From: Eledone cirrhosa
Taxonomy: Eukaryota
Length of the DNA: 64,000 nucleotides
Assembly: GCA_964016885.1 (NCBI GenBank)
Contig: OZ024741.1
Location: 315,518,001 to 315,582,000, forward strand
Reading direction: 5' to 3'
The notes under the pieces: model-generated
What the model saw: the letters and a program-made list of their open reading frames with translations, nothing else
Database searches by the model: none
What the model was told of the DNA's origin: nothing
Shown here: positions 4,449-60,596 of the stretch, piece after piece
How positions within the stretch are numbered: position 1 is the stretch's first letter
Layout: each line of letters begins with the position of its first letter
Made by a program: the position numbers and the translations under genes

Positions 4449-4453
<5 letters not shown>

Positions 4454-6849: not shown

Positions 6850-8165
6850 ATAAACGGAGAAAGAGAAATCAACGTATAGACAAACAGAGAGTGAAAGAGC
6901 GAGTAGTCTGGCTGCTTTGAACCACTCCCTATATTAGACTGTCTCTAAAGTTATAAACGGAGAAAGAGAAATCAACGTATAGACAAAGAGAGAGTGAAAG
7001 AGCAACGTATAGACAAAGAGAGAGTGCTATAAACGGAGAAAGAGAAATCAACGTATAGACAAAGAGTGAGTGAAAGAGCGAGTGTGAAATTTGTTTAATT
7101 AAAGATAATTTCAATAGAATTAGTATTCTCTCTTTAATTTAATATAATTTCAATAGAATTATTAAATTCTCTCTTTAATTTAATATAATTTCAATAGAAT
7201 TAGTATAGTGTCTGTTTCACATTACTTCCCTTCCACTCCCATTACAGGGAGTTCTTTTTCAGCTAGCCCTTAACTAAGTGCTGTAATTTGATATCTTCAT
7301 TTCGTCTGTCCTTATTTTCCTGACCTGGACATAAACCAACACCTTATCTTCCCTACCTTTATCTCTATAGAAGTTACTACTTATTTCTTCATCCTTTTCT
7401 TTTAGTCTATGTATCTATATAGAGTTTTTTCCTGTTTTTCATCATTTCTCCATATACCGTTTCTGGGTTTCCTTTTTAATACCTTGGTGTTTTGATATTC
7501 TTAAAATATTATAATACCTTGGTGTTTTAATATTCTTAAAATATTATATCTCTCTTCCACTATTATCACTAGAATTTCTACTCTAGCTATCTTATAGCCA
7601 CTAACTGCTGTAATTTGATATCTTCATTTCGTCTGTCCTTATTTTCCTGACCTGGACTTACACCAGCAGCTTACCTTCCCTACCTTTATCTCTATAGAAG
7701 TTACTACTTATTTCTTCATACTTTGGTTTTATATTTTTAGTTTTATTACCCTACCACATAAACAATGATCACTTATAATACCATGATCCATTTTCCTTAT
7801 ATACTGTAATTTTCTGATGAAGGACTGAGGTACGTGTTATTTTGTCTGAATAATTTGTATTATTTTCACTCTGTTTTTACAATTGTTTATATCATCAATC
7901 AACACATACATATTGGTTATGACTCCTTCTACATTTCGATTACATTGAGTTCTTCATACGTATTTCACACTACTGCTCATTTCGGTAGAGTGATTGTGAT
8001 AAAATATTTTCCTTTATTTTCACTCTGTTTTTACAATTGTTTATATCATCAATCAACACATACATATTGGTTATGACTCCTTCTACATTTCGATTACATT
8101 GAGTTCTTCATACGTATTTCACACTACTTCTCATTTCGGTAGAGTGATTGTGATAAAATATTTTC
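6850..8165 (+). repeat. Tandem and dispersed duplications in the Helitron 5' non-coding region
   Basis: tataaacggagaaagagaaatcaacgtatagacaaa x3 (6850-7085); AT-rich repeats 7105-7205; 7279-7400 repeated at about 7607-7720; a 34-bp duplication at about 7478-7548; about 155-bp tandem duplication 7860-8165. Confidence 0.85.
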
Positions 8166-8174
8166 TATTCAATT

Positions 8175-11100
8175 ATGCCTCCCAAACAACGAGCGATTGG
8201 TCAATCTACCCCTCAAGCAACGAAAAAATATGCATTACGAGCTTCAGAGATATACGAGCAACGGGAATCACGATTGGAAACCGTTCGAGTAACAACTGCA
8301 CAAGCCCGTTCATTTGAAACATACGAGCAACGGGAAGCAAGATTGCAAACCGTTCGAGTAAGAACTGCTCAAGCCCGTTCATCTGAAACATACGAGCAAC
8401 GGAAAGCAAGATTGCAAACCGTTCGAGTAAGAACTGCTCAAGCCCGTTCATCTGAAACATACGAACAACGGGAAGCAAGATTGCAAACCGTTCGAGTAAG
8501 AACTGCTCAAGCCCGTTCATCTGAAACATACGAGCAACGGGAAGCAAGATTGCAAACCGTTCGAGTAAGAACTGCTCAAGCCCGTTCATCTAAAACATAC
8601 GAGCAACGGGAAGCAAGATTGCAAACCGTTCGAGTAAGAACTGCTCAAGCCCGTTCATCTGAAACATACGAGCAACGGGAAGCAAGATTGCAAACCGTTC
8701 GAGTAAGAACTGCTCAAGCCCGTTCATCTGAAACATACGAGCAACGGGAAGCAAGATTGCAAACCGTTCGAGTAAGAACTGCTCAAGCCCGTTCATCTGA
8801 AACATACGAGCAACGGGAAGCAAGATTGCAAACCGTTCGAGTAAGAACTGCTCAAGCTCGTTCATCTGAAACATACGAGCAACGGGAAGCAAGATTGCAA
8901 ACCGTTCGAGTAAGAACTGCTCAAGCCCGTTCATCTGAAACATACGAGCAACGGGAAGCAAGATTGCAAACCGTTCGAGTAAGAACTGCTCAAGCCCGTT
9001 CATCTGAAACATACGAGCAACGGGAAGCAAGATTGCAAACCGTTCGAGTAAGAACTGCTCAAGCCCGTTCATCTGAAACATACGAGCAACGGAAAGCAAG
9101 ATTGGAAACGAATCGACTACGCAATGCTCTCACAAGAAGAATACTGCACGATGATTTCAATCTTGGTGCATTTCATTACGATTCAAATTGTGATTACAGT
9201 CTTCATCCAAGTGTGATTATTGGAAAAATGGATAAATTATGCGGGTATTGTGGTGCCCTCAAATTTAAAAATGAAACACCAGGAATGTGCTGCTCGGGTG
9301 GAAAAGTGAAATTGCCAGAATTACATCCACCACCTGAACCATTATCAACGTTAGTATCAGGTGACACAAGCGAATCTAAACATTTCTTGGCAAACATACG
9401 CAAGTACAATTCATGTTTCCAAATGACATCGTTCGGTGCAACAAATATCGTGCGCGAGAATTACATGCCAACATTCAAAGTGCAAGGGCAAATTTATCAT
9501 CGTGCTGGATCACTACTACCACTGCCGGACGCAGATCACAAATTTCTTCAAATTTATTTCATGGGAAACACTGATGATCAAATAGATCAACGTTGCAAAT
9601 TCAATAGGGGAACTAAACGAGAAATTGTTACTGCATTACAAACTTTATTCAATCAACACAACAAATTAATTAGATTGTTCAGAGCTGCCCTGGAACAAAT
9701 GCCAAATGATGACTACACAATTGTAGTTAGAGCAGACAAAACACCTGTTGGCCAACATCAAAGACAGTACAATGCACCAACAATTGATGAAATGGCGATC
9801 GTTATAGTAGGTGAAGAATTTAACTCGCGTGATATAATTCTTCACCGCAGAAATGGTGATGTTCAGCGAGTCTCAGAAACGCATCGGTCATACGATGGAT
9901 TGCAATATCCAATTTTATTTTGGCAAGGAGAAGATGGATATCATTTCAACATCAAACTGAGAAATCCAGAAACAGATGAGGAAACGAATAAGAAAGTCAG
10001 TGCCATGAATTATTATTCATATAGATTAATGATTCGTGAAAACGGTGAAAATCATATTTTGAAATATCGACAATTGTTCCATCAATACATTGTCGATATG
10101 TATGCAAAAATCGAAACCGAACGACTTCTCTACATTCGATTGAATCAAACCAAGCTACCTTCAGAAGAGTACATTCATTTACGTGATGCCATTCTTAATG
10201 ATGGCAATATGAATCCTAATGAATTGGGGAAAATGGTCATACTGCCGGCTACATTTACAGGGAGTCCACGGCACATGCATGAATACGCACAAGATGCAAT
10301 GACATATGTTCGCGCATATGGCCGTCCAGATTTGTTCATTTCATTCACATGCAATCCTACGTGGGATGAAATTAAAGAACTTTTGTTACCTGGTCAATCA
10401 TCTTCGGATCGTCATGATATTACAGCGCGCGTGTTCAAACAAAAATTGAAATCTTTAATCGATTTCATTGTCAAGCATCATGTTTTTGGAGAGACACGCT
10501 GTTGGATGTTTTCCATTGAATGGCAAAAAAGAGGATTGCCACATGCACACATTTTGATTTGGTTGATTGAAAAAGTCACACCAGATCAAATTGATCAAAT
10601 CATCTCAGCAGAAATACCAGATGTCAACGTTGATCCAGACTTATTTGAAGTCATCACTAAAAACATGATTCATGGTCCATGTGGCTTACTCAACAACAAT
10701 TCACCATGCATGTCTGATGGGAAATGCACAAAACAATACCCAAAAGACTTACTTGCCGACACTATCACTGGCAATGACGGATATCCACTATATCGTCGAC
10801 GAGCAACTGAAGATGGCGGCAAATCCATCACTTTAAAAGTACGAAACAATTATGTTGAAGTCAATAATCGTTGGATTGTACCATATTCACCGTTACTCTC
10901 GAAGACGTTCAAAGCACACATCAATGTCGAGTATTGCAATTCGGTGAAAGCGATCAAGTACATTTGCAAATATATCAACAAAGGAAGCGATATGGCAGTC
11001 TTTGGAGTGTGCAATGCAACTACACCTATCGATGAAATCGACCAATACCAACTGGGACGCTACATTAGTAGTAATGAAGCAGTATGGCGCATTTTATCAT

Positions 11101-13313
11101 TTCCAATCCATCATCGACATCCAACAGTTGTTCATTTGGCGGTGCACCTTGAAAATGGACAGCGCGTATACTTCACAACTGAAAATGTACGTGCAAGGGC
11201 ACTGACACCACCGCCAACAACGTTAACTGCGTTTTTCTCATTGTGCAGCGAAGATGTGTTTGCAAAGACACTACTTTATTCTGAAGTGCCAACATATTAC
11301 ACATGGAATACACCAACGAAAAGGTTTAAACGTCGCAAACAGGGTAAAGTAGTTGAAGGACATCCCAATTTATATTCGACCGACGCGTTAGGCCGTTTGT
11401 GCACTGTTCACCCAAATAATGCAGAATGCTTTTATTTGCGATTGTTGTTAATTAACATACGTGGACCGACATCATTCCAAGAATTGAGAACAGTAAACGG
11501 TCAAGTATGTGCCACTTATCGTGAAGCTTGCCAAGAATTAAATCTTCTTGAAAATGATGGACATTGGGACACTTCACTCGCTGATGCATCGAATACTGCT
11601 CGACCAAAGCAAATACGCACATTATTCTCAATAATATTGACAACGTGCTTCCCATCAAATCCAAAAGATCTTTGGGAAAAATATAAAGACTACATGAGTG
11701 AAGACATCCTACATCGTTTGCGTGCAACAAATCAAAATATGAATATTCAATTCACACCAAATGTGTATAATGAAGCATTGGTTTCCATTGAGATCATATG
11801 TTTAGCAATCGCTAACAAAACATTGGTACAATTGGGAATGCCTGCGCCGAATCGATCTGTAAACGACATTTTCGATCGTGATTTGCAACGAGAAACAAAC
11901 TTTGATGTCGCCGAATTGGGTACATTTGTTCAAACGAATCTTCCCAAATTGCTACCAGAACAACGCATAGTATATGACCAAATTATGCAGGCAATTATAA
12001 GTCAAAGCGGCGGATTGTATTTTATAGATGCGCCCGGTGGTACAGGCAAAACTTTTCTCATTTCACTTATTTTGGCAACTATACGATCAGAAAATAATAT
12101 TGCACTGGCAATCGCATCATCTGGAATTGCGGCAACTCTTTTAGATGGTGGCCGAACAGCACATTCAGCCCTGAAATTGCCATTGAATTTGCAAATCGCT
12201 GAGACATCAACATGCAATATTACCAAAAATTCTGGTATAGGTAAAGTACTCCAATCATGTAAAATCATTATATGGGACGAATGTACTATGGCGCACAAAA
12301 AATCATTGGAAGCGCTTAATAATACGCTAAAAGATTTGAAAGGAAATGAACAGCTCTTCGGTGGCACACTCATTTTATTGTCTGGTGATTTTCGACAAAC
12401 TATACCAGTTATACCGCGATCAACACCCGCTGATGAGCTTAATGCATGTCTCAAATCATCAGTTTTATGGCGACACGTACAGAAATTAACTTTAAAAAAC
12501 AATATGCGTGTACAACTACAAAATGACGCATCCGCTGAACGTTTCACAAAACAATTGCTGGATATTGGGAATGGGAAAATGGTAATCGATGATTCCACAA
12601 AATGTATCACATTGCCAACAAACTTCTGTAGAATCACGGCAACCAGAGACGAACTGATTCACAAAGTGTTCCCAAATATTGCGCAGCATTACAAAAATCA
12701 TCAGTGGCTCAGTGTACGTGCTATATTAGCAGCCAAAAACACCGATGTCAATGCCATTAATTTCAGCATTCAAAACGAAATACCAGGCGAAGCGACAACG
12801 TATAAGTCCATCGATACTGTAATGAATCAAGACGAAATTATCAATTATCCAATTGAATTCTTGAATTCACTTGATTTGCCAGGCATGCCACCGCACATTT
12901 TAACATTGAAAATTGGCGTGCCTATCATCCTTCTCCGAAACATCAATCCACCACAACTTTGCAACGGTACCAGACTTTCAGTGAAAAAGACGATGAACAA
13001 TATCATCGAGGCTACAATTTTAAATGGAAAATTTAAAGGAGATGTACTCTTGCCACGCATCCCAATCATTCCAACAGATACGCCATTCGATTTCAAACGT
13101 TTGCAGTTTCCGGTGCGACTCGCCTTTGCAATGACTATCAACAAAGCACAAGGACAATCGCTACAAGTGTGTGGACTAAATTTAGAAAATCCATGCTTCT
13201 CACATGGACAGCTGTATGTGGCTTGCTCACGCGTCGGTAAACCTTCTGATTTATTCGTGTACGCACCAGAAGGAAAAACAAAAAACATTGTGTATCCAAA
13301 AGCACTTCAGTAA
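8175..13313 (+). CDS. Helitron RepHel protein: HUH/Y2 replication initiator plus PIF1-family SF1B helicase
   Basis: Uninterrupted 1712 aa. Zn-like CGYCGALKF..MCCSGGKV; Rep motifs PDLFISFTCNP, EWQKRGLPHAH, KYICKYINK; helicase motifs DAPGGTGKT, IIWDE, GDFRQ, TINKAQGQS, HGQLYVACSRV. Confidence 0.97.
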   Translation: MPPKQRAIGQSTPQATKKYALRASEIYEQRESRLETVRVTTAQARSFETYEQREARLQTVRVRTAQARSSETYEQRKARLQTVRVRTAQARSSETYEQREARLQTVRVRTAQARSSETYEQREARLQTVRVRTAQARSSKTYEQREARLQTVRVRTAQARSSETYEQREARLQTVRVRTAQARSSETYEQREARLQTVRVRTAQARSSETYEQREARLQTVRVRTAQARSSETYEQREARLQTVRVRTAQARSSETYEQREARLQTVRVRTAQARSSETYEQREARLQTVRVRTAQARSSETYEQRKARLETNRLRNALTRRILHDDFNLGAFHYDSNCDYSLHPSVIIGKMDKLCGYCGALKFKNETPGMCCSGGKVKLPELHPPPEPLSTLVSGDTSESKHFLANIRKYNSCFQMTSFGATNIVRENYMPTFKVQGQIYHRAGSLLPLPDADHKFLQIYFMGNTDDQIDQRCKFNRGTKREIVTALQTLFNQHNKLIRLFRAALEQMPNDDYTIVVRADKTPVGQHQRQYNAPTIDEMAIVIVGEEFNSRDIILHRRNGDVQRVSETHRSYDGLQYPILFWQGEDGYHFNIKLRNPETDEETNKKVSAMNYYSYRLMIRENGENHILKYRQLFHQYIVDMYAKIETERLLYIRLNQTKLPSEEYIHLRDAILNDGNMNPNELGKMVILPATFTGSPRHMHEYAQDAMTYVRAYGRPDLFISFTCNPTWDEIKELLLPGQSSSDRHDITARVFKQKLKSLIDFIVKHHVFGETRCWMFSIEWQKRGLPHAHILIWLIEKVTPDQIDQIISAEIPDVNVDPDLFEVITKNMIHGPCGLLNNNSPCMSDGKCTKQYPKDLLADTITGNDGYPLYRRRATEDGGKSITLKVRNNYVEVNNRWIVPYSPLLSKTFKAHINVEYCNSVKAIKYICKYINKGSDMAVFGVCNATTPIDEIDQYQLGRYISSNEAVWRILSFPIHHRHPTVVHLAVHLENGQRVYFTTENVRARALTPPPTTLTAFFSLCSEDVFAKTLLYSEVPTYYTWNTPTKRFKRRKQGKVVEGHPNLYSTDALGRLCTVHPNNAECFYLRLLLINIRGPTSFQELRTVNGQVCATYREACQELNLLENDGHWDTSLADASNTARPKQIRTLFSIILTTCFPSNPKDLWEKYKDYMSEDILHRLRATNQNMNIQFTPNVYNEALVSIEIICLAIANKTLVQLGMPAPNRSVNDIFDRDLQRETNFDVAELGTFVQTNLPKLLPEQRIVYDQIMQAIISQSGGLYFIDAPGGTGKTFLISLILATIRSENNIALAIASSGIAATLLDGGRTAHSALKLPLNLQIAETSTCNITKNSGIGKVLQSCKIIIWDECTMAHKKSLEALNNTLKDLKGNEQLFGGTLILLSGDFRQTIPVIPRSTPADELNACLKSSVLWRHVQKLTLKNNMRVQLQNDASAERFTKQLLDIGNGKMVIDDSTKCITLPTNFCRITATRDELIHKVFPNIAQHYKNHQWLSVRAILAAKNTDVNAINFSIQNEIPGEATTYKSIDTVMNQDEIINYPIEFLNSLDLPGMPPHILTLKIGVPIILLRNINPPQLCNGTRLSVKKTMNNIIEATILNGKFKGDVLLPRIPIIPTDTPFDFKRLQFPVRLAFAMTINKAQGQSLQVCGLNLENPCFSHGQLYVACSRVGKPSDLFVYAPEGKTKNIVYPKALQ
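8241..9110 (+). repeat. In-frame 69-bp (23-aa) tandem array, about 12.5 near-identical copies, in the RepHel N-terminus
   Basis: The YEQR codons (tacgagcaac; one copy tacgaacaac) recur every 69 bp from 8253 to 9081. Peptide unit: ETYEQREARLQTVRVRTAQARSS. Confidence 0.97.
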
Positions 13314-14144: not shown

Positions 14145-14227
<83 letters not shown>

Positions 14228-14318
14228 CGAAGGAAATGTGGTAAGGAACCAGGTGGACCATAACGCACCAAAGTACTCAATACTCGAGGTAGTAGAGTGG
14301 GTAATAGGAACCAGTAAG

Positions 14319-14412
14319 ACCCCGACAGCTGAGCTCAAGCCGTTTCGACGGCTAATTCTGGACTAAATGAAAATTTATCCTGGTATTTAAATAGCCGATC
14401 TTCTCAAGGGGT
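14319..14412 (-). ncRNA. Type I hammerhead ribozyme, U3:A8 core variant
   Basis: Reverse complement of the 15223-15316 motif. Confidence 0.75.
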
Positions 14413-15222
14413 AATTCCATATATGGTCAAAGTGATTGTCAAAAATCAGTAGTAATTCTGTGGTTGCAAATTAGCAACAAAAAACTCAACCCCGATGGCA
14501 GAAAAAACCTAATTAGCAGTGGAGAACCGACCAGGAGGTGTAACTGCCCGGATAGATCTATTTGCCCACTCGACAATAGATGCAGAGACCGTAATGTGAT
14601 CTACCAGTGCAACGTGAGGACGGATACCTCCAACAAAGCCTATATAGGACTTACCGCAATAAGGTTTATTGTTATAAAGGTTTATTGTTTATTTCGTGAT
14701 AGTCTCTTTAGTATTTTGGCCCCTTTTGTTGACCCGTCACCGTATCATTTACGTACTTATACCTCTTAAAAGGGTCCTTGCCTAATCCGTCCCACCTAGT
14801 TCTTTTACTTATTTCGTTATTTCTTTATTTATTTATTTCTTTACTTCTTTCTTTCTTTCTTTATTTTATTCTAGCCTAACAATAGCCTGAGACCTAGGTC
14901 GTAGAATTTAATTTATTTTACTTTTTTCTTTACACTTATTTGCTTTTCTTCACTCTCAGTATTTTTTTTTTTTTTTTTTTTTATATATATTTCTACCCCC
15001 CATTGTTCTACCTACCGTTCCGACTTCCTCCCCCTCCCCCTCCCCTGTATCTTCTTTGACCTCATGCCCAGCTGTAGCTGGCACTACCAACGCTTGATTG
15101 GGTCTACTCCACCCCCTCCCCTCTTTCTCCTACTGGCAGGTTTAGCCACCATCTCCCCTACTAATTTGCAACCACAGAATTACTACTGATTTTTGACAAT
15201 CACTTTGACCATATATGGAATT

Positions 15223-15316
15223 ACCCCTTGAGAAGATCGGCTATTTAAATACCAGGATAAATTTTCATTTAGTCCAGAATTAGCCGTCGAAACGGCTTGA
15301 GCTCAGCTGTCGGGGT
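15223..15316 (+). ncRNA. Type I hammerhead ribozyme, U3:A8 core variant
   Basis: Stem I ACCCC/GGGGT; core TTGAGAA; stem II GATCGGCTA/TAGCCGTC with a long loop; GAA; stem III ACGGCT/AGCTGT; GUC cleavage triplet. Confidence 0.8.
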
Positions 15317-15326
15317 CTTACTGGTT

Positions 15327-15396
<70 letters not shown>

Positions 15397-16655
15397 ATAT
15401 ATAAATATATACATATATATATATATACATACATACAAAAATACATACACAATAGTAATATCAATGAGAGTACATTTTACTCATTTAGTAGGTGTATTTT
15501 AGCTCAATGCTATGATTGGATCAAGCAAAGCCAGGATATAGCCATGATATAGTTACAGGATATAATCACTGTCAATTGTTTCTTCCCATAGGAATATACC
15601 ACAGACTGCAAATGATTTATTTAATAATTTGTTATTAGTTAGCATATACCATAGGGGTAATCAGAGTTTAATAAAATCCCAAACGGTTAATTAAATATCA
15701 ATAAAAATCATTCAAGAATAACATATAACATATATCACTTATCAAATTGGATCATAGTTTAAATAATATGGTGCCAGTTGTATTATATATACACGTTATT
15801 TGGAAGAGTGGTAATTTTCCAAAAATAAATTGAATTTTATCATTTTATCAAAGCAATATTCATATTTGTAAGAACAATCCATCGAATCTAATAGGTTAAA
15901 GTTGAAAGATGTCTACTGCAGACCTAACATTGGGGTCGATAAAATAAAAGTACCAGTAATACATAATTGCTGGCCTTGTGCCAAAAAGTAGAAACAATTA
16001 TATCAGGAACCATGAGGTCATGCAGAGTGAATGTGTAGCGAAATCTGGCCACACCTTGACCCCTGGGTGACATTTCACGGTCATTTTGTGGGTTATCTCC
16101 TTTCGGGCGTCAACAAGTTTGAGATTGGATGACCTCGCAAGGTCAGCCCTTTGTTCTCAAGACTTGAGACAGAGGAAGTGACATAGATAAATCGCCTGCT
16201 TTAGATCAACCAGGCAGCAGTTTGGAGCGGTTCTTGATAGAGTAAACATGTAAACTACTCATTTCTACAGACCCCTTGGGGTCTTACAGACTCTTACTTT
16301 CTCTTTCTTTCTTTCACTCAATCACTATCTCTTGGTCTCTCTCTTAACCGAGCCAGTGAAGTTCATGAAGTTTTCTTGGTAAATACAATTTAATTCTACA
16401 AACAAATAACGTCAATAATTCTTGTGTATTTTTCGTATAGCTTCGGTGTGAGCTATTTTCAATAAATTAATAATATAGGGTTTGGTGTCGTCGTAGTTTA
16501 TTCATATATATTCATTTTCTGCGTGATCAAGGAACTATCATATCATCATCATCTTATTGAACACTTACTCACGTACCTGCACACATGCAACCTGTGGCCA
16601 CACTCTATCACACAGCAGTGACCACATGACAAATTAAATCCTCGCTATACATATA

Positions 16656-16692
<37 letters not shown>

Positions 16693-16703
16693 GAACCAGT
16701 AAG

Positions 16704-16797
16704 ACCCCGACAGCTGAGCTCAAGCCGTTTCGACGGCTAATTCTGGACTAAATGAAAATTTATCCTGGTATTTAAATAGCCGATCTTCTCAAGGGGT
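16704..16797 (-). ncRNA. Type I hammerhead ribozyme, U3:A8 variant
   Basis: Same motif as 15223-15316. Confidence 0.75.
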
Positions 16798-18471
16798 AAT
16801 TCCATATATGGTCAAAGTGATTGTCAAAAATCAGTAGTAATTCTGTGGTTGCAAATTAGTAGGGGAGATGGTGGCTAAACCTGCCAGTAGGAGAAAGAGG
16901 GGAGGGGTGGAGTAGACCCAATCAAGCGTTGGTAGTGCCAGCTACAGCTGGGCATGAGGTCAAAGAAGATACAGGGGAGGGGGAGGGGGAGGAAGTCGGA
17001 ACGGTAGGTATAACAATGGGGGGTAGAAATAGGAAAGAAAAAATACTGAGAGTGAAGAAAAGCAATTAAGTGTAAAGAAAAAAGTAAAGTAAATTAAATT
17101 CAACGACCTAGGTGTCAGGCTATTGTTAGGCGAGAATAAAATAAAGAAAGAAAGAAAGAAGTAAATAAATAAATAAATAAGGAAATAAGTAAGAGAACTA
17201 GGTGGGACGGATAAGGCAAGGACCCTTTTAAGAGGTATAAGTACGTAAATGATACGGTGACGGGTCAACAAAAGGGGCCAAAATACTAAAGAGACTACCA
17301 CGAAATAAACAATAAAGGTTTCCATCCCGGGCCAGCAACGACCCAGTGCAGCAAAGTGAACTTGTACGAGATAATAATTCTGAGTCCCGAGAAAAATATA
17401 TACTAATGCTAACTCTAAAAGATCTAAAACAAACTACATGAAAGTTCGTACGAAATAAAGGTAGAATACGGAGAAATAAATTCAGAATCCACCCCGCCCA
17501 GAAGAAAAGCGAAGCAAGAAATACTGAAACGAAAAAATAAGGCATAAGTGCCACTAAGAAATATAGAGGGCACAGAGAATAGTGGGAGCGGTCGGAAAAA
17601 GGGGGAAAGTATCCGGGGTCTAAGCCAACTGCTATAAAGGGCGGAGTCCGCCAAATCTATCAAAGACTAGGGGAGGGGGGGGGGGGGGTACTAAGGCTAC
17701 ATGGGGCCAAAGGGCAGCCTCGGGTGGGCGAGAAAAGACGCCGACAAAGGAGAAGAGCTGGGGTAGAAGGACAAAGGAGAGAGGGGGGAAGGAAATAAAG
17801 GAAGCGATAAAAGAATACAAAGAAGATCTTACGTCTTCCTTGGCAAGCAGGGGTTACCCATTGCAAAATCGGCAACTGGGGTGTTATAGCCCTAGTCTAC
17901 CCCCCCCCCCCCCCGGGTCATTATGGGGTTTGAGGGCGAGGTAAGTCCTACGCAATCTATGTTTACATGCAGTAACCAATTCATCTTTCTTGTTTAGGAG
18001 TTGGTCCGTCGAAAACAGCATTTGTAAGGTTTCCTCCGAGCATAAATTGCACGGACGGCGTCCTCCCGTGTAAGAATTGGCTCTGGACAGTAATCTCCAA
18101 GTGAGATCATAGGTGATGTTGTTGTCCTTGAGGTCCCATATGTGGCCCGAAAGTGTAGTGGCGTGACGCCGGGCCGGGTTTCGAAAGGTATGTCTATGTT
18201 GGTATAGCCGGGTCTTGAAGTCACATGCGGTAAGTCCTATATAGGCTTTGTTGGAGGTATCCGTCCTCACGTTGCACTGGTAGATCACATTACGGTCTCT
18301 GCATCTATTGTCGAGTGGGCAAATAGATCTATCCGGGCAGTTACACCTCCTGGTCGGTTCTCCACTGCTAATTAGGTTTTTTCTGCCATCGGGGTTGAGT
18401 TTTTTGTTGCTAATTTGCAACCACAGAATTACTACTGATTTTTGACAATCACTTTGACCATATATGGAATT

Positions 18472-18565
18472 ACCCCTTGAGAAGATCGGCTATTTAAATA
18501 CCAGGATAAATTTTCATTTAGTCCAGAATTAGCCGTCGAAACGGCTTGAGCTCAGCTGTCGGGGT
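18472..18565 (+). ncRNA. Type I hammerhead ribozyme, U3:A8 variant
   Basis: Same motif as 15223-15316. Confidence 0.75.
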
Positions 18566-18656
18566 CTTACTGGTTCCTATTACCCACTCTACTACCTCAA
18601 GTATTGAGTACTTTGGTGCGTTATGGTCCACCTGGTTCCTTACCACATTTCCTTCG

Positions 18657-18697
<41 letters not shown>

Positions 18698-18700
<3 letters not shown>

Positions 18701-18791
18701 CGAAGGAAATGTGGTAAGGAACCAGGTGGACCATGAGTACAGAATTAGCCGTCGAAACGGTTTGAGCTCAGCCGTCGGGGTCTTACTTGTT

Positions 18792-18795
<4 letters not shown>
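18698..18795. mobile_element. About 100-bp mini-derivative (inverted tail plus HHR 3' half) in (TA)n
   Basis: acgaaggaaatgtggtaaggaaccaggtggacca joined to cagaattagccgtcgaaacgg...ggggtcttacttgttccta. Confidence 0.8.
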
Positions 18796-18833
<38 letters not shown>

Positions 18834-18837
<4 letters not shown>

Positions 18838-21099
18838 AACGAGTAGGACCCCGACGGCTGAGCTCAAGCTTCTTCCGCGACTGGGATTTAAAATAACCCT
18901 ACAAACGTCCCTGACCCGAGTAAACTTCCTGGACGTTACCCTCGACCTCGATAATGACCTGTACTACCCATACAGGAAACCTAACGACAACCTGCACTAC
19001 ATCCACCGCCGATCAAACCATCCTAGGAACATCACCAACAACCTGGTCAAAAACATCTCCCTCCGCATATCCCGTTTGTCTGCTAATGAGCAGATATTCG
19101 AGGAACATGCGCCTTATTACAACCAGGCCCTCAAGCGGAGTGGTTTCCGGGAGGAAATATCCTACTGTCCAGCTCCCATTAGCGGAACCAGCAGGCGACA
19201 CCGCTGCTCACGCAATGTAACATGGTTCAATCCTCCCCACAACGTTGAGGTGACAACTCCTATCGGGAAAATATTCTTTAGGCTCATTGAAAAACACTTC
19301 CCACTACAACACCGCTACCACAACATAATTAACAAAAATACCATCAAACTCTCTTACAGTACTACACCAAACTTTGCACAAAACATCGTCTCCCCCAACA
19401 ACAAAAAACTCAACCCCGATGGAAGAAAAAACCTAAATAGCAGTGGAGAGCCGACCAGGAGGTGCAACTGTCCTGATGGATCCATTTGCCCCCTCGACAA
19501 CAGATGCAGAGATCGTAATGTGATCTACCAGTGCAACGTGAGGACGGACACCTCCAACAAAGCTTATATAGGATTAACCGCTTGTGACTTCAAGACCCGG
19601 CTATACCAACACAGACATTCCTTCCGAAACCCGGCCCGGCGTCATGCCACCACACTTTCGGGCCACATATGGGACCTCACGGATAACAACATTACCTTTG
19701 ATCTCACTTGGAGATTACTGTCCAGAGCCAACTCCTACACGGGAGGATGCAGTCCGTGCAATTTATGCTCGGAGGAAACTTTACAAATGCTGTTTTCAAC
19801 GGACCAACTCCTAAACAAGAAAGATGAACTGGTTACTGCATGTAAACACAGATTGCGTAGGACTTACCTCGCCCTCAAACCCCATAATGACCCGGGGTGG
19901 GGGGGTGGGGGTAGACTAAGGCTATAACACCCCACTTGCCGATTTTGTAATGGGTAACCCCTGCTTGCTAAGGTAGACGTAAGATCTTCTTTTATATCTT
20001 TTTATCGCTTCCTCTATATTTCCTTCTTCCCCCTTTTCCTCCCTAGTCCTTCCACCCCAGTTCTTTTTCTTTGTCGTCGTCTTTTTCTCGCCCACCCGAG
20101 GCAGCCCCTCGGTCCTCTGTAGCCTCAGTACTCCCACCCCTTTTCCGTGCTTTCTATATTTTTTAGTGGCATCTTTGCTTTAATTTCTCGTTTATCAGTT
20201 TATCAGTATTTTTTTGGTGGGGGGGGGGGGGGGGGGGGGGTCGAACTGATTTTCCGTATTTTACTTTTACTTCGTACGAGCTTTTATGTAGCTTGTTTCG
20301 TGGCGGTACCCTTAGAGACAGTATTAGTATTCTTTTTCGGGACTCTGATTTCTTATTTCTTACTAGTTTACTTTTTTGCACTGGGTCATTGCTGGCCTTG
20401 TGCCTGGGGTAGAAACCTTTTTTATTTCATGGTAGTTTCTTTAGTATTTTGGCCCCTCACTTGTAGACCCGTCACCGTTTGATATATGTACTTATACCTC
20501 TTAAATGGTCTCTTTTTAATTCCGTCCCACCTAATATATTTCTTTAGCATAGCAATAGTGAGAGACTGAGGTCGTAGTAACCAGAATTCGTTTATTTTCT
20601 TTTTTACATTTAATCGCTTTTTACTCTCTCAGTTTTTTTTTTCTTTTTTTTTATATATTTACCCCTCATTGTTCTACTTACTGTTTCGACTTCCTCCCCA
20701 TCCTCCTCCCTAGTTTCTTCTTTGACCTCACGCCCAGCTGTAGCCGGCAATATCAACGCATGAATGGGTCTCCTCTTCCCCCTCTCCCTCTTTCTCCTAC
20801 TGGCAGGCTTAGCTACCCCTTCCCCCCACAAATTGCCATCATAGAATTATTATGTTTCAACTACTAACTTTTTGACCAATCCCTGTGACAATCACTTTGA
20901 CCATATATGGAATTACCCCTTGAGAAGTTCGGCTATTCAAATACCAGGATAAATTTTCATTTAGTCCAGAATTAGCCGTCGAAACGGATTGAGCTCAGCC
21001 GTCGGGGTCCTACTCGTTCCTATTACCCACTCTACTACCCTAAGTATTGAGTACTTTGGTGCGTTATGGTCCACCTGGTTCCTTACCACATTTTTTTCG

Positions 21100-21101
<2 letters not shown>
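18834..21101 (+). mobile_element. Hydra-like PLE (RT thumb plus GIY-YIG), 5'-truncated, with a short inverted pLTR end
   Basis: NFLDVTLDL..YRKPND..SNHP, then ORF 19076..19927 with WFNPP, IKLSYS, CNC..CP, VIYQC..YIG, CNLC. The 3' pLTR carries an HHR at 20915-21008. Confidence 0.93.
20915..21008 (+). ncRNA. Type I hammerhead ribozyme, U3:A8 variant (diverged subfamily)
   Basis: ACCCC-TTGAGAA-GTTCGGCTA...TAGCCGTC-GAAACGG..CCGTC-GGGGT. Confidence 0.72.
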
Positions 21102-21654: not shown

Positions 21655-22000
21655 TATACGTTATTCCGGGTTGAATCGGAGGTAACCACAGTAAGTAAGG
21701 TACTCAATACATAGCAGAGTATAAACGTTTTAATATAGATGAGATTCTACAGGACTAGAACTGTTTCATTCTTTAGAAATCATCAGGAATCTAAGAATGT
21801 AAGAAGAAAATATTACTATCAAAATAAACAAATATTTACGCATTTCAGAGGATAAAGTGGGGTAATCTAATGAGTTGAACCGGTGTTATAGTTACAAAGG
21901 AGACTTTTTATTTTGCCTTATCTAAATCATATTGCTAAGTACATATATTTGAATTAATATATGTTAAACAATTACACTTATCTAAAGGATATTTAATATA
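21655..22000 (-). mobile_element. PLE pLTR/tail fragment with a degenerate HHR (relatives at about 30845-31110 and 39240-39530)
   Basis: Minus strand CTGATGA-tttctaaagaat-GAAAcagttctagtc at about 21753-21792. The same motif occurs at 30872-30910(-) and 39441-39480(+). Confidence 0.6.
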
Positions 22001-22711: not shown

Positions 22712-22757
<46 letters not shown>

Positions 22758-22825
22758 CAAGGTTTAGCAAATAATGAAAAAGTTTCAAAATAAATTTTAA
22801 AAAATTAACTTTACTTACTATAGTT

Positions 22826-22909
22826 ACCTTTACCGAATCGGTTTCGAATCTCAAAAATAAACGGTGACCATACGGCCTTCGTTGCAAAGAAAGATTCTCG
22901 TCAGAAGGT
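22826..22909 (-). ncRNA. Type I hammerhead ribozyme, canonical core
   Basis: Reverse complement of 23548-23631. Confidence 0.88.
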
Positions 22910-23547
22910 TCTTTTCATTCGAAGAATATAAAATTCTTGAATTTAAATTACGAACTAGCGCTATCCAAAACTGTTCCCGAGATGAGAGTAAATGAAGTGG
23001 AATCAATTTTTTCAAGGGCCGAAAGTAAAGATAGAGGCAGAGGTAGGTAGGTCAATCGGCCACCACTATCGCTAGCAGCAGTCGGAGCGACCAAATTTGT
23101 TCTCAACATAGAGGAGAATAGTAATAATAGGATATGTGTTCCTACACGCACAAGGTGCTAAGGGACACATGTATTGTCCAACCATATGCCAATGTGGTTC
23201 AATGGCAGGTTATTAAATTAACGAGCCAGAACATATATAATCAAGGTTTAGCAAATAATGAAAAAGTTTCAAAATAAATTTTAAAAAATTAACTTTACTT
23301 ACTATAGTTACCTTTACCGAATTATCCTATTATTACTATGCTCCTCTATGTTGAGAAAAAATTTGGTCGTTCCGACTGCTGCTAGCGATAGTGGTAGCCG
23401 ATTGACCTACCTACCTCTGCCTCTATCTTTACTTTCGGCCCTTGAAAAAATTGATTCCACTTCATTTACTCTCATCTCAGGAACAGTTTTGGATAGCGCT
23501 AGTTCGTAATTTAAATTCAAGAATTTTATATTCTTCGAATGAAAAGA

Positions 23548-23631
23548 ACCTTCTGACGAGAATCTTTCTTTGCAACGAAGGCCGTATGGTCACCGTTTAT
23601 TTTTGAGATTCGAAACCGATTCGGTAAAGGT
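23548..23631 (+). ncRNA. Type I hammerhead ribozyme, canonical core
   Basis: Stem I ACCTT/AAGGT; CTGACGA; stem II GAATCT/AGATTC with a long insert; GAA; stem III ACCGA/TCGGT; GUA triplet. Confidence 0.9.
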
Positions 23632-23811
23632 AACTATAGTAAGTAAAGTTAATTTTTATAAAATTTATTTTGAAACTTTTTCATTATTTGCTAAACCTTG
23701 ATTATATATGTTCTGGCTCGTTAATTTATTAACCTGCCATTGAACCACATTGGCATATAGTTGGACAATACTGTGTCCCTTAGCGCCTTGTGCGTGTAGG
23801 AACACATATCC

Positions 23812-23848
<37 letters not shown>

Positions 23849-23873
23849 TATACATATATACATATATTAGGTA

Positions 23874-23942
<69 letters not shown>

Positions 23943-23950
23943 TATATATA

Positions 23951-24726
23951 TAATAAGTTGACGGACCCAGCATAGGTACCAATGTTAGGACCGATTGCAT
24001 CTCAGCGTACTCAAAGGGTAATGTTAAATACACTCCCAGAGTATACACATAGTTATTCGCTTCAATACAACACACGTAAACGGGTGCCTATAGTAGTTCC
24101 CGAATTCGAGTTTCTGCCACATTTATGCAGCAGCAGAGTGCACAGCATCTTCTGTCCGCATATATTATGCAACAATGCATAATTGGCGCATGTGGCTTTA
24201 TCAGCGGGTTTCGCCTAATCAATAACCAATCGATCGACAGAATGGCAGGAGATTAGAAATCAAATAGTTCTGCTCCCGTCATAAGCTCTCAGCCAACTTG
24301 TCTAAATCAATAAGTTAGTGAAAAAATAGGGTATCAGAAAAAGCAGTCTCACATCGCTGTATAATAGAATGGTAGCATTCGGCTCTAGTCTCCAAGTCCC
24401 ATGGCGAGAAAATCGCGATAGTAACAGTGGTAGTGCATACAACCTTTCTGGACATTAAATGCCAACAGCTATTACACAGCGATATAGAGTAGAGCGCTGG
24501 TTAGCGACCAACCACGTGCGTAAACCAGTCTATTTCAAAACTTACACAATCTGCTAGTTGGGAGACAATAATAATAATAACTTGACGGACTCAGCATAGG
24601 TATCAATGCTAGGACTGGCTGCACCTCAGCGTACTCAATAGGTAATGTTAAATATACTCCCAGAGTATACACATAGTTATTCGCTTCAATACAACACACG
24701 TAAACGGGTATCTATAGTAGTTCCCA
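23951..24726 (-). mobile_element. Non-coding element with about 150-bp terminal direct repeats (624-bp period) and a degenerate HHR-like motif
   Basis: ttgacggac..cagcatagg...tatagtagttccc at 23958 and 24582. Minus strand AGTTGG-CTGAGA-GCTTA...TAGGC-GAAA...CCAATT at about 24181-24298. Confidence 0.55.
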
Positions 24727-25545: not shown

Positions 25546-25595
25546 TATATATATATATTAAAATAAATAAAATAGATGTTCTTTTGATCAATTAC

Positions 25596-25648
25596 ATTTT
25601 ATTATACATATTTCGGATGTACAACAGTACGTCCTCATCAGACAAAAT
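25596..25648 (-). ncRNA. Minimal type I hammerhead ribozyme
   Basis: ATTTTGT-CTGATGA-GGACGTACTGTTGTACATCC-GAA-ATATGTAT-A-ATAAAAT. Confidence 0.75.
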
Positions 25649-27901
25649 ATAATGATATATGACATACCCTGAGATGTTAAATGGTTAAGATTTAATCAAG
25701 GTAGTGATTAACCCAAGAGAAAATTTTACATATATAGCCTAATTGTGAGAAAATGCGAAAACGTAATAAATTCATTAGAGAATGTGTAAGTAAGAAAAAC
25801 GTTGCTTACTGTAACTGTAGAAAATGGTACTGTAGACAATGGTACCAAAATAGTTACTTTCCTTGACGTTACCTTTAACTTAAACACCAGCTTTTCATAA
25901 GCCTAATGAAAACTTAAATTATGTTAGTAACTATTCAAATCACCCTAGGTCTGTAAAAAAAACTATAGTAAATAGTGTGCAAAAACGTATTAATAAAATA
26001 TCAGCTAATAAAGATATATTTGATAAAAACGCTGAATACTACAACAACGCGTTAAAAAGAGCAGGATATATGAATAATATAGAATATGTAGATAATAATA
26101 GTCCAAGTATTATTCCTAATAATAATAATAAAAATAGTAACATATATAAGAGAAACTCTAATAATTTTAATTCAAACACCCCTACGCTAAATAAATCGAG
26201 AATGCGAACTAGATCTAAACCAGTCATATGGTTTGCCCCCCCCCCCCCCCCTGCTTCGGTCGCAGTTAAAACACCAATTGAAAATTATTCTTTAAAGCAC
26301 TTGACACCTCTTTCCATACTCAACATAAATACCATTCCATTTTTAATAGACATACCATTAAATTCTCACATTCTACAACCAGTAACATGGCCAAAACATT
26401 GCCAAATTAAACACTAAAATCCTAAAACCAAACCACCATAATGATCCTAATAATAGAGTTAACATAAATGATGCTAAACCAAAATGTAATTGTAGAAATA
26501 AAACTAATTGCCCTTTGCAAAATAATTGTTTAGATAGTAAATTAGTTTATAAATGCACCTTAAAAACTGATCACAAAACATACAACTTCATAGGTTCGAC
26601 CTCTTCCACATTCAAAGCCCGTTTTGCGAACCATAAATGCTCATTCTCGAACTCTAAGAAGAAATCATCCACGTCTTTATCACAGCTCATATGGTCATTA
26701 AAAGAGAAGAATTTAAAATACTCCATTCTTTGGACAAAACTTCGGAACTGTGGAATTTACCGCAACTCTAGTATATCAAATAACTGCCCGCTCTGTACAA
26801 TTATTAATAACTATGAGACCCTAATTAACAAAAAAAAAGTGAATTATCTCCCTATATCTTCCTATACACAATTTTTACTTAACTTCTAAATTTCTTGATT
26901 ACGTACACTCTGAACTAAGAATAAATAATGCATTTACACCCCGTTATATATAGGTGTTTATTTAGCCGTAACATGCCTCAATTTATTTTTATTTTTCGTT
27001 ATCATTTACCTAAAATATACTGGATCAATAATATATATCTATATACATAATCGTTATTAAAATATTTCTAACAATAAATACTTCGGAAGCTTTACATACC
27101 TAATATGTTGATATTTTGGTTAAAGAATAATTAATACATTTACACCCAGCTATACATAGGTGTATATTTAACCTTAACATGCCTCAATCTATTATCTTAT
27201 TTTATTTTTATCTTCGTCGTTATTATTTACCTAAAATATACTGGCTCATTAATATATACCTATATACATAATCGTTATTTAAATATTTATAACAATAAGT
27301 AATTCAAAAACTTTACATACCTAATATGTTGGTATCTTTGTTAAAGTTTAAATTTGGGTAAATAATCAACAGTATAATATTTCATTCTTTATGTGCCAGC
27401 TAAATCCTTGTAATGTTACCCTCACAAAATTCAGAAGCTTAGAAATGATAACACACTTAATGAATTTATAAAAGTAATATATAAATAACCAGCAAATAAT
27501 CCTGAAATCTGGAGTCTTCACCCTAATATTATAAATTATAAATTAAATATTTTCAAATTTAACCGTTTAACTTTCGGAAAAAAAATCATTCTGTATATAT
27601 CACCCCCCACCCCACCCACCACCACCCACCCTTTATCTTTCCCTCTTTATAAATCATTTTCCAGTGGCTATCACTGGCTGTTATGATTCATGAGGTGTTT
27701 TCCTAGACATATCGTAGTAGCATACATTTTAAAATTTTAGAACAGTTACAGTACGCAACGTTTTTCTTACTCTAATGAATTTATTACGTTTTCGCATTTT
27801 CTCATAATTAGGCAATATATATAAAATTTTCTCTTGGGTTTATCACTACCTTGATTAAATCTTAACCATTTAACATCTCAGGGTATGTCATATATCATTA
27901 T

Positions 27902-27946
27902 ATTTTGTCTGATGAGGACGTACATCCGAAATATGTATAATAAAAT
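27902..27946 (+). ncRNA. Minimal type I hammerhead ribozyme
   Basis: ATTTTGT-CTGATGA-GGACGTACATCC-GAA-ATATGTAT-A-ATAAAAT. Confidence 0.75.
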
Positions 27947-28008
27947 GTAATTGATCAAAAGAACATCTATTTTATAAATATTTATATTTTATTATATATA
28001 TATATATA

Positions 28009-30240: not shown

Positions 30241-30819
30241 TATTGTTATACTTTGGGAGGGTCATGTTGCCAATAAGAAACGCACGCACCAGTTGCTTTC
30301 ACTTCAATTTAATTTATTATATATTTATAAATTTACAAATTTATAAATTTCTGGTTGGTTGGTTGGTTCCACAACCAGATAGTTGTTTATATATATATAT
30401 ATAGTCATAGTTCTTTCGTCACACACTCTGTGACCTCTTCAGTGACTGGGGATTTCTTTCTTCGTTTCTGTGCCTTTCCTTTCTTCTATCCTACGCCATT
30501 TTGTTTTCTAGCGTAGGATAGAAGAAAGGAAAGGCACAGAAACGAAGAAAGAAATCCCCAGTCACTGAAGAGGTCACAGAGTGTGTGACGAAAGAACTAT
30601 GACTATATATATATAAACAACTATCTGGTTGTGGAACCAACCAACCAACCAGAAATTTATAAATTTGTAAATTTATAAATATATAATAAATTAAATTGAA
30701 GTGAAAGCAACTGGTGCGTGTGTTTCTTATTGGCAACATGACCCTCCCAAAGTATAACAATATCGGTTTCAACACACGATTTCAGATAAAGAATCTTGCT
30801 AAATAAATTCAGAAACGAA

Positions 30820-30850: not shown

Positions 30851-31275
30851 ATATAGAAATGACTTCTACAGGGCTAGAACTGTTTAATTCGGGAGAAATC
30901 ATCAGGAGCCGAGGGTGGTGATTGGATGGGGAGGGTGGTGATTGGAATGCGTGGAGGTCATTGGATTCAAAGAAAAGGGAATTCTTTAAAAACTATATTT
31001 AGAGTGAAAAGGCAGAAAAAATTCTATAGACAGGTTCACACTGGAGGTGCCCCTTCTGATTTTTAAGGGTCACTTAAGCTAACAATAGCTAATGGTCAGG
31101 TGCCTACAAACACACTCACACACACACACATGCACTCACTCCCCCACACTCGCACAAACACACACTCATATACTTATATATATACACGAATACATACATA
31201 TATATATACACACATTCACACATTATTTATAAATCGGAGGTAACCACAGTAAGTAAGGTATTCAATACATAGCAG

Positions 31276-38985: not shown

Positions 38986-39530
38986 AATATATATGATAAA
39001 AAATATATATATGTGTGGGGGGTGTCTCTGTTTGTGTGTATGTGTGTCTGTATGTAAATGTAAATATATGTGTGTATGTATGTGTGTATATGTATACATA
39101 TTTATATATATGTATATATATGTATATATATGTATATATATATATGTATGTGCTTGTGTATGTGTGTGTGTGTGTATGTATGTATTCGTGTATATATATA
39201 AGTATATGAGTGTGTTTGTGTGTGTGTGTGCGTGTTTGTAGGCATCTGATCAATAGCAATTGTGAGCTGAAGTGAACCTTAAAAATCAGGAATGGAATCT
39301 CCAGTGTAAACCTGTCTTTAGAATTTTTTAAAGAATTCCCTTTTCTTTAAACCCATCAACCAATGACCTCCAACCATCCCAAATACCACCCTCTCCTACC
39401 ACCAGAAAAGATATAAATCCACCACATTACTTGGACAGTTGGCTACTTGATGATTTCTCCCGAATGAAACAGTTCTAGTCCCGAAGAAGCCATTTCTATA
39501 ATAAATATTTATACTCTGCTTTTTACTGAT

Positions 39531-42500: not shown

Positions 42501-44927
42501 TTGTATTGAGCCCTGCTGATGTTGTCGTAGGGTGTGTAGATTTGATGGACGTGGTTATAGGGTGTGAAGTTGTGGTGGTATCGTGTGGTTGTGCTGAGCA
42601 CTGCTGTTGTTGTAGGGTGTGTAGACTTGGTGGTGTTGTAGTAGGGTTGTCTTGTGTGTTCATATTGAGTCCTGTTGTTGCTGTTATATGGTGTGTAGCT
42701 AAGGTGGTTGTAGTGGTTAGGGTGTCTCGTGAGGTTGTATTGTCCCCTGCTGGTGTTGTAGTAGGGTGTGGTTAGTGGGGAGGGTAGATTAGGGTTTCCT
42801 TATAGCTGGTGTGTGGTTGTGAGGCCCTGTGTGACATGTGTGGTAGTTGTGTATTTTGTTGTGTGGGGGATGTTAGGGGAGTTGTAAGTGTGGGGGGTTT
42901 TATGGTTTCTCCTGGTAGGAGAGAAGTTGTAGTGTCTATCTTGTAGTTGATGTTTCTCTATTACTATATTTGTTGCTTGGGAGTCCGTGTGGTAGTTGTG
43001 AGGGGGTGTAGGAGGTAGGGGCGAGGTGATGCCTTCTTTTGTTGGTATGTGGGGAGGTATTGTTTTTTTGTTGTTGTTGGTTGTTGTGTGGTGTTTGGGT
43101 GTTGATTGAGTTTTCTTGTTATTATGGTTTTAATGAAGGGTTTCTTGGATGTGTGTTCTTTTTGGAAAAGTGTTTCATAGTTAAAGAACTAGGTTTCGTT
43201 TATTTCCCAGCGTTGAAGGGATTTTAATTCTTCCCTATTACAGTCCTCTAACCATAATTTTGAAATATTTTCTAGGGTGGTGTCTTTGGTTATATTTGAT
43301 CCTATCTTCATTTGCTTGGACTTTTCAATTTAAGGAGTTCAATTTCGGTTTTTATGTTATCAAGTGCCATTCTTTCCCTGAGGTGTCTTTGTGTCTCTGG
43401 TCCGTTTGGGATGGATATAATTTGTAGTTTGAGGGAGATGATTAATGGGGATGAGTTAATCCATTTTTCATAGATCTCCGCTTTGTTATTGTTTTGTATC
43501 ATCTTCCAAAAGGAGAATTTCCTGTTTTTAAGAAACACACTTATCAGCAGAAACTACCCACCATCCCTAATCACCAATGGATTCCAACGTGCCCTAAAAC
43601 TAGACATCCAGGAACTCAGACACCCCAAACCCAGGAAGGAACAGCAACAAAAAACTCTACCATACATCTCCACACACAACCCCCTCAACAATGAGGCATT
43701 CGACACCATCCTCCAGAACATTCCTTCACTAAAAAGAGACCCTAGAATGAACAAAATCCTCCAGACACACAATATCATAAAGAGCAAAAGAGCAAAAGAC
43801 AACCCAAATCCATAAAAAACACCCTCACACAAGCCAAAATCCAACAAATCCTCACAATGAACCCTATAATAACAAAATGCGGAAGGCCCAACAACGGCAT
43901 AGGCATCAATCTAATAGAAACTTCAACATTCCATTTTAAACAAGGACAGCGTTTCACAGTTAAACACAACTTTACATGTGCATCTGAAAACCTTATCTAT
44001 GTTTTGACCTGCTCAGGTTGTCAAGAGCACTACATAGGACAGACAAAAAACAGCCTCTGTCAAAATATGACCGTCCATAAATCACAAATTAAAATACAGG
44101 AATACAGAAAGATTGCATTTAGTGAACATATCGCCAATTGTGCTCACAACCAACATCCAAACTTTAAAATTTTCACCATTTACAAATTCATAGACAACGC
44201 TACTTTCATTCCAAGGAAACATATTTCATCAATAAATTTCAACCCCTACTTAATGCTCTAAAAATCGGACGAATCTAAAACTGCAACAAACAATCAAACA
44301 TTTACAAGAGTTACCTCCCTCACACCCTACCTAATCCTTTTTCTTAAATAAATTAAATATCATCCAGCAAGAATTGCTTCCCCTGCATATTAACTCTCTA
44401 AAAAGGGAAATCATATCAAACCTCAGTCCAGTATTTGCCTCCATCACGGAATCATGGATCAACTAAGCACTCTTGCTATATTAACACATTTTGATCTGCT
44501 TAACTTCAATGACTTTGCTTGTAAATAACATTATTTTTTCTTCCACATTGACTTTTTATGTTCTTCATTATACACGTTTTTTTTTCATTTTTCTTTTTCC
44601 TTTTTACTTCATAAACCTTGTTTGTAAATAACATTATTCTTTCTGCACCTTCTGTTTAACATGTGCGACACCACACTAATACATTTCACTATCATTTGAT
44701 AAGATAATGCATAAAAATGGTGAAACCGGTAATAAACAATAATTAAATATATAAATAGATAAATAAATGCCATTGTTAAATAATAAATAAATCAACTAAT
44801 ACAAAGTAAAACATTTCGTTTTATACATTTTCTAACCCAGAAAAAAAGAGAGAGAGAAACAAAAAAGGAAAAACATATATATTTTTCTTCCTAATAATCG
44901 CCTCTTTCTCCCTGTTTTAATATATAT

Positions 44928-60557: not shown

Positions 60558-60596
<39 letters not shown>

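Follow-up and report, generated by a model that had tools for sequence, protein, structure and literature searches.

Metazoan non-LTR retrozymes, as described in the main accounts (PMC7229834; bioRxiv 10.64898/2026.07.22.740005), are ORF-less units with one type I hammerhead, a GC content below 45%, head-to-tail closure and co-occurrence with Penelope-like elements (PLEs), and the same accounts propose PLEs as both the mobilisers and the origin of animal retrozymes. The 484-nt unit described below is alike in each of these features. It is longer than the units of ~170-400 nt given in PMC7229834, and lies within the 51-972 bp of the 2026 survey (bioRxiv 10.64898/2026.07.22.740005). Known retrozymes form head-to-tail tandem arrays or monomers, whereas the arms at our locus are inverted 5'-5', are just over one unit long and end on TA words; the main text of PMC7229834 contains neither "inverted" nor "target site". 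The hammerhead also differs, having a 7-bp stem II and a 38-nt loop where the canonical retrozyme stem II is 4 bp.

EN+ PLEs, especially the Hydra elements, resemble the locus in several respects (PMC8557442, PMC4209133). Their copies occur in partial tandem with a 5'-truncated copy inverted at the 5' end, they target (TA)n, they have alternative 3' ends, and their hammerhead, located towards the 3' end, combines a long stem II with a palindromic stem III. The inverted arrangement with both ends out in (TA)n is, according to these sources, the ordinary PLE insertion pattern (PMC8557442; PMC4209133). However, EN+ PLEs have an RT/GIY-YIG ORF and a kilobase period, in contrast to the ORF-less 484-nt period found here, and their alternative 3' ends reflect a 30-40-nt tail, while those of the 484-nt unit are ~100 nt apart. 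Among individual elements, Poseidon of the green anole, studied in vitro, starts reverse transcription at +111-118 with a hammerhead cut at +26, a distance of 85-92 nt, compared to 83 nt here; it also resembles the locus in its AT-rich target, in the cutting and extension of both strands and in a predicted dimer (PMC11167929). It differs in being autonomous, in starting on uncut RNA and in showing no target homology at the start, whereas the arms described here end on TA microhomology (PMC11167929). The non-autonomous Chlamys PLEs, for example MRC1, likewise have pLTRs and head-to-tail insertions, but are green algal, have a known autonomous partner whose 3' sequence they share and belong to a clade mostly devoid of canonical hammerheads (PMC8557442).

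More-than-unit reverse transcription of circles has been proposed for PLEs. In the accounts covered, this circle template and the mobilisation of retrozymes by PLEs are standing hypotheses based on co-occurrence, shared hammerheads and pLTR phylogeny. In the open-access literature searched, with PMC7229834 and the 2026 preprint covered by their main texts, we found no description of an inverted retrozyme insertion, nor of an ORF-less closed unit bearing the complete inverted, TA-primed PLE signature.

Results

Structure of the inverted locus

The window analysed, i.e. the whole stretch of 64,000 nucleotides, contains two permutations of one 484-nt ORF-less unit, inverted 5'-5', with the 3' ends directed outwards into (TA)n. 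The left arm (22749..23322, hammerhead sense on the minus strand) is 574 nt long (484 + 90), or 1.17-1.19 units, according to how the overlap with the TA tract is divided. Its 5' end is located inside hammerhead stem III, 8 nt before the first predicted cleavage site; its 3' end lies 82-83 nt past the second and merges into a (TA)20 tract, the putative target (22716..22755), whose last 7 nt match the unit as well. The two predicted cleavage sites are spaced exactly 484 nt apart, and the full monomer between them (22831..23314, minus strand) is 36.8% GC, with a longest stop-free stretch of 69 codons in the six frames of the doubled unit. The remaining 90 nt (23233..23322, minus strand) are identical to 22749-22838 at an offset of 484 and include the arm's second copy of the cleavage site, 23315/23314, with half of stem III. 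Since the left arm crosses the cut site twice, its template was not a simple cleaved monomer.

The right arm (23323..23817, plus strand) is 495 nt long (484 + 11), and its 3' end, 191 nt past the cleavage site, merges into a TA-rich tract that is the putative target on this side (23815..23952). The period of this arm is given by an identical 11-nt word at both ends, 23323-23333 being repeated at 23807..23817 (plus strand), the presumed priming site, and by colinearity with the left arm. The arms meet head to head (5'-5') at 23322..23323, with no microhomology, no shared letters and no TA remnant. In a self-comparison of the arms, two antidiagonals 484-485 apart were observed alongside the 484-offset overlap; arm-to-arm identity was 98.5% over 387 nt and 97.5% over 200 nt, and the left and right monomers differed at 10 positions (~2%). 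In unit coordinates, the arms start 296 nt apart. These starts, together with the 10 differences, exclude a simple mirror fold-back. An earlier note on this DNA had described an exact 484-nt period in both copies, two permutations of one unit, a minus copy of about 1.17 units that begins in stem III, and a plus copy that begins and ends on the same word. All of this was borne out, the minus-copy start being refined to 23322.

The outer ends of both arms enter the flanking tracts at TA words internal to the unit, as the same note had stated. The word at 23703..23709 (plus strand) corresponds to the left-arm 3' end and to the 3' end of other family copies, and is a candidate priming site. The three 3' ends seen in the family (23709, 23806 and 23817) each fall on one of the seven TA words of the unit.

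In L1 twin priming, both target strands also prime cDNA, and the RNA 3' ends of both arms face outwards, as they do here. The L1 arms, however, are non-overlapping parts of one poly(A) RNA, whereas both arms of our locus cover the whole unit and no poly(A) is present.

The hammerhead motif and its folding

Each arm contains one complete type I hammerhead motif, at 23548..23631 (plus strand, predicted cut after 23626, GUA) in the right arm and at 22826..22909 (minus strand, predicted cut 22831/22830) in the left, the left arm's second cut site having only part of the motif. An active retrozyme copy is expected to hold two complete hammerheads; by this measure, the locus is a monomer-type copy. 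In the right arm, stem I is 5 bp (23548-52/23627-31) and is followed by the core CUGACGA (23553-23559), a 7-bp stem II (23560-66/23605-11) with a structured 38-nt loop, GAAA (23612-23615), and a near-palindromic stem III (23615-25) of 4 bp with a 3-nt loop. A strict motif scan recovered the CUGACGA/GAAA/GUA core claimed in the earlier note; within the window it matched the two copies in the 484-nt unit only, and 30 of 30 shuffled windows gave no match. For 23540-23640, the MFE fold is the hammerhead; for the longer segment 23530-23650 it is not (z -0.38; 66 of 200 shuffles fold equally well). An Rfam search returned no match at the gathering score and no hammerhead family among 28 matches at E up to 10.

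The 22 nt that immediately follow the cleavage site (23627-23648) resemble a short repeat at 21680-21701 and 31238-31259 (19/22, E 0.63), which belongs to another family likewise ending in (TA)n. The same stretch contains words that we take to resemble splice donors.

When the 484-mer was circularised and folded, as the earlier note had proposed, it was more stable than shuffled controls (z -3.0 and -3.4, 0/40). The antisense circle was likewise stable (z -2.3, 1/40 shuffles), and therefore the fold speaks only weakly for a circle. In the circle as predicted, adopting the hammerhead carries a penalty of 6.7 kcal/mol, a hint that the ribozyme may be switched off there. In Xenopus, eight of nine retrozyme dimers that had been predicted showed no cleavage when assayed in vitro (bioRxiv 10.64898/2026.07.22.740005); thus, a good hammerhead motif need not be active.

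The 484-nt family in public DNA reads

Among the 17 public runs listed as carrying the unit, none is recorded as RNA, and the four with the largest share come from one organism and one study, possibly the source of the window itself. Four runs were aligned to 23323-23812 at 80% likeness, seven runs of small share (X6-X12) being left out: X1, X3 (a run without a recorded kind, not treated as RNA), X15 (RAD reads with the same species label as X1, from a separate study) and X5 (organism B). Family matches comprised 1013 contig pieces in X1, 27 contigs in X3 and 2399 reads in X15; X5 yielded one uninformative 157-nt contig of depth 2. The head-to-tail joint 23806 -> 23323, a step back of 484, was present in 62 X15 reads with 18 different starts (mean X15 depth at the first bin, ~81) and in two X1 contigs, alongside minor variant joints. 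The unit is thus closed in DNA. We conclude that it belongs to a multi-copy family closing head-to-tail at 484 nt; of the "484-nt circle" of the earlier note, the closed unit is observed, while the circle is an interpretation.

Family copies also run out into (TA)n. An exit at 23709 was seen in 106 X15 reads, a number that may include the locus itself and may be favoured by RAD size selection. Two X1 records (4 and 5) that end at the same position carry 7 and 6 substitutions, in contrast to the single gap by which the left arm differs; these records thus represent other copies. One X3 contig exits at 23806. Among the joints listed for X1, X3, X15 and X5, neither the 5'-5' junction of the locus nor any other strand-changing joint occurs; the reads accordingly do not confirm the insertion, nor do they show that the inverted form is widespread in the family. 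In X15, read pile-ups and loose ends at 23452, 23522, 23654, 23662 and 23723 were considered as element boundaries and rejected as library artefacts, all five falling on AATT sites.

Variants were taken from 40 of 194 rows, covering 38 positions. Four of these variants fall in the hammerhead, none of them in the core. Two of the changes, 23562 A>G and 23609 T>C, form a compensatory pair in stem II with matching frequencies in X15 (162/462 and 142/435 on one strand, 74/157 and 107/210 on the other). Of the other changes, 23606 A>G retains a wobble pair and 23592 is located in the loop. Stem III becomes perfectly palindromic through the deletion of 1 nt at 23620 (294 of depth 686), a form associated with dimeric cleavage in the PLE hammerhead literature (PMC4209133). 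Over the whole predicted circle, 13 of 20 paired variant positions in the same 40 of 194 rows keep the pair and 7 break it.

On 23323-23812, X3 showed A>G and T>C changes in a ratio of 29:12, versus 17:23 in X1 and 27:36 in X15 (Fisher p 0.014 and 0.009, post hoc; 27 X3 contigs). An excess of this kind would fit A-to-I editing of hammerhead-sense RNA, although alleles can mimic editing.

PLE relics and other elements in the window

The window is animal-like and (TA)n-rich, with a Helitron ORF and RT/GIY-YIG relics; its repeat landscape presumably resembles that of octopus genomes. The Helitron is represented by an uninterrupted Rep/helicase frame of 1718 aa with 69-bp STPR repeats (8157-13313). 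Several PLE-like relics are laid out like the 484-nt locus, with a short arm in inverted orientation, arms joined head to head and a TA tract at each 3' end. An ORF-bearing pair (14227-15328 and 16692-18657) shares an identical junction and hence goes back to one event that was duplicated. The region 14227-21100 is a cluster of one Hydra-type PLE family, which ends at two sites ~80 nt apart, at least one of them on a short TA word; hammerhead scans of this cluster found none. At 25559-27992, a decayed, ORF-bearing PLE of the Hydra type includes a pLTR in inverted orientation, has (TA)n at either end and carries small hammerheads on opposite strands (25641-25603, minus; 27909-27939, plus). A further PLE-like family has three copies (4451-6798, 39527-40792 and 42889-44919), the first of them another relic of this layout, with an inverted terminal arm and TA-rich ends. 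A near-perfect palindrome at 30243-30760 adjoins a PLE RT relic; both of its arms contain a minimal hammerhead (30442-30408, minus; 30565-30599, plus).

The CxCX5C linker, a Hydra mark, was found in three of six ORFs checked. Pfam assigned no family to eight of 12 ORFs, including those with CxCX5C; the Hydra label is a matter of motif reading. In the account of PMC8557442, this linker defines the Hydra clade, a group of hammerhead-bearing elements that target (TA)n.

A second ORF-less hammerhead unit, with a period of ~717 nt, was identified on the minus strand at 59981-60750 (1.07 units), with a short inverted arm extending to 60868. It shares the inverted geometry of the 484-nt locus, with both 3' ends facing outwards, ends in TA/CA tracts, has internal (TA)n and contains a hammerhead (60350-60275) with a long stem II loop and the core UUGAUGA. 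Its colinear similarity to the 484-nt unit is borderline, equally high scores being reached by 4 of 200 and 20 of 500 shuffles, and the match, though the best tile of the window, is close to AT-rich tiles. When the 484-nt unit was compared with the PLEs of the 64-kb window, neither the DNA nor its translation matched significantly, and no sequence was common to the unit and the pLTR or 3' end of an autonomous partner within that window; tblastx against the whole window likewise gave nothing below E 0.75. Neither this comparison nor the supplement of PMC8557442 provided a sequence link to a named PLE, and two hammerhead-motif strings were not found in that supplement.

Pattern scans gave 0 matches in viral contigs and none in phages; the five matches in metagenome contigs were not homologous to the 484-nt unit beyond the pattern itself. 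Two metagenome contigs, L004 (2001-2048) and L005 (2001-2058), contain unrelated small hammerhead-like motifs. L004 is plant-like DNA, and one of its frames is presumably lipid-transfer-protein-like.

Discussion

A probable retrozyme inserted in the manner of a PLE

We consider the locus to be one insertion of a non-autonomous PLE, a retrozyme, primed from both strands of (TA)n by the enzyme of a helper PLE, and assign this reading a probability of about 0.75. It is supported by the anatomy of the locus, the 484-nt closure, the TA-word 3' ends, stem conservation and the same geometry in nearby PLE relics. The marks that define a PLE insertion in PMC8557442 (a partial tandem, an inverted 5'-truncated copy, a microsatellite target and internal 3' ends) are all found at the locus, and the unit has several of those of a non-LTR retrozyme: a type I hammerhead motif, the lack of an ORF, a short low-GC unit and head-to-tail closure. 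The telomerase-like RT and GIY-YIG ORF of autonomous EN+ PLEs is missing from the 484-nt unit. Our reading is thus of a unit that inserts in the way of a PLE and has the build of a non-LTR retrozyme, rather than of an autonomous PLE.

Such an insertion could have proceeded as follows. A more-than-unit source copy would be transcribed, and a (TA)n-targeting PLE protein, most plausibly of the Hydra type, would bind the RNA downstream of the hammerhead and nick both strands of the TA tract. The freed 3' ends might then pair with short internal TA words (the equivalents of 23703-23709 and 23812-23817) and prime cDNA synthesis, and the two resulting cDNAs, of 574 and 495 nt, would be joined end to end, giving 5'-5' inverted arms.

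Alternative origins

The best surviving alternative, though an unlikely one, is that the unit is only the terminal part (pLTR and 5' region) of an autonomous PLE and the locus a heavily truncated or rearranged copy of it. The hammerhead does have PLE-type proportions, with a long stem II, a short stem I and a palindromic stem III, and in PMC4209133, opposite-strand hammerhead pairs 100-700 bp apart are already ascribed to truncated PLEs. Summed contig depth in X1 was ~10-30x greater over 23527-23764 than over 23323-23440, as if more sequences shared the part from the hammerhead to the 3' end; this excess fits 5' truncation or a longer relative, but contig depth is not a copy number and the gradient is not seen in X15 or X3. 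Moreover, the stretch from cut to cut is 484 nt without an ORF, and reads close the loop at that length. Of the loose ends, 18 of 203 rows were covered, and none of these enters consistent foreign sequence; all are explained by chimeras at AATT restriction sites, by exits into (TA)n or by subfamily variation. The earlier note had held that a pLTR plus 5' region of an autonomous PLE would speak against its interpretation. The unit may well descend from exactly such a region, which makes this case more a likely origin of the retrozyme than a rival to it.

Two independent insertions at different times, back to back in the same TA tract, appear less probable again. They would account for arms that are 2% apart in a window where (TA)n has been targeted repeatedly, and at most of the checkable differing sites (23340, 23396, 23479, 23759 and 23771) the left-arm letter is a common family allele. 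Nevertheless, no remnant of TA separates the arms, and the 5'-5' arrangement is described as the standard product of a single PLE event (PMC8557442). The arms also have family-rare alleles in common; at 23592, for example, the other letter is found in 339/364 and 114/133 X15 reads. The sharing of such alleles suggests that both arms came from one source lineage in one event.

An origin at the DNA level, with a tandem satellite inverted or folded back by recombination or replication error and no RNA step, is the least probable of all: the head-to-tail joints are present as DNA, TA tracts are fragile and inverted duplications are frequent in the window, but a fold-back gives mirror symmetry at the centre, in contrast to the offset and diverged arms seen here, the outer ends fall on internal TA words at which other copies end as well, and the hammerhead stems are kept through compensatory change. 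A long, uniform DNA satellite, the other case that the earlier note had set against itself, is disfavoured by the exit of family copies into (TA)n at 23709 and 23806 and by uneven contig depth along the unit; no long uniform tandem array is present at the locus, and for the rest of the family the evidence comes from short reads and contigs, which do not size arrays.

Circle or multimer

The note had deduced a circular or multimeric template from the two permutations. This joint proposal agrees with the double crossing of the cleavage site in the left arm and with the closure of the unit in reads, but a circle alone is not required, an uncut multimer explaining the same anatomy. A cleaved linear monomer could have templated the left arm only via template jumps, we infer, while a circle or an uncut multimer can do so directly. 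Within the retrozyme insertion favoured above, we consider an uncut or re-joined linear multimer slightly more probable than even, and a ligated circle slightly less.

The right-arm stop 11 nt past a full turn, the identical overlap in the left arm and the stable circular fold with its disfavoured hammerhead point towards the circle. The rough chance of a stop so close to one full turn is 0.046 (post hoc, under a uniform assumption), and as a sign of a circle it is only suggestive. The identical 90-nt overlap was considered as proof of a circle and rejected, zero differences having a probability of 0.15 at the 2% divergence of the arms. On the side of the multimer, two enzymes priming on adjacent units would likewise bring the downstream cDNA to a stop after roughly one unit, a 2% divergence of the arms is compatible with neighbouring units, and the one PLE tested in vitro had uncut RNA as its dominant substrate, as reported in PMC11167929.

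The more specific proposal is that a ribozyme produced a circular RNA, that a Penelope-type enzyme reverse-transcribed it by the rolling-circle mode, and that the locus is the direct footprint of this process; the proposal is tentative, and we regard it as possible but doubtful. One cDNA would then represent a single turn, stalled 11 nt after re-entering its own priming site, and the other 1.19 turns, in which the ligated hammerhead junction would have been passed twice. A circular template predicts identical overlaps within an arm and 5' ends that pile up exactly one unit from the priming site; a multimer predicts neither.

Implications

To what is known of retrozymes, the locus adds the anatomy of an insertion site, in which an ORF-less hammerhead unit bears the full PLE signature. 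It thereby makes the mobilisation of retrozymes testable by counting end positions and overlaps. If the rolling-circle reading is true, ORF-less circles of 484 nt and ~717 nt would, genome-wide, parasitise the (TA)n-targeting Hydra PLEs.
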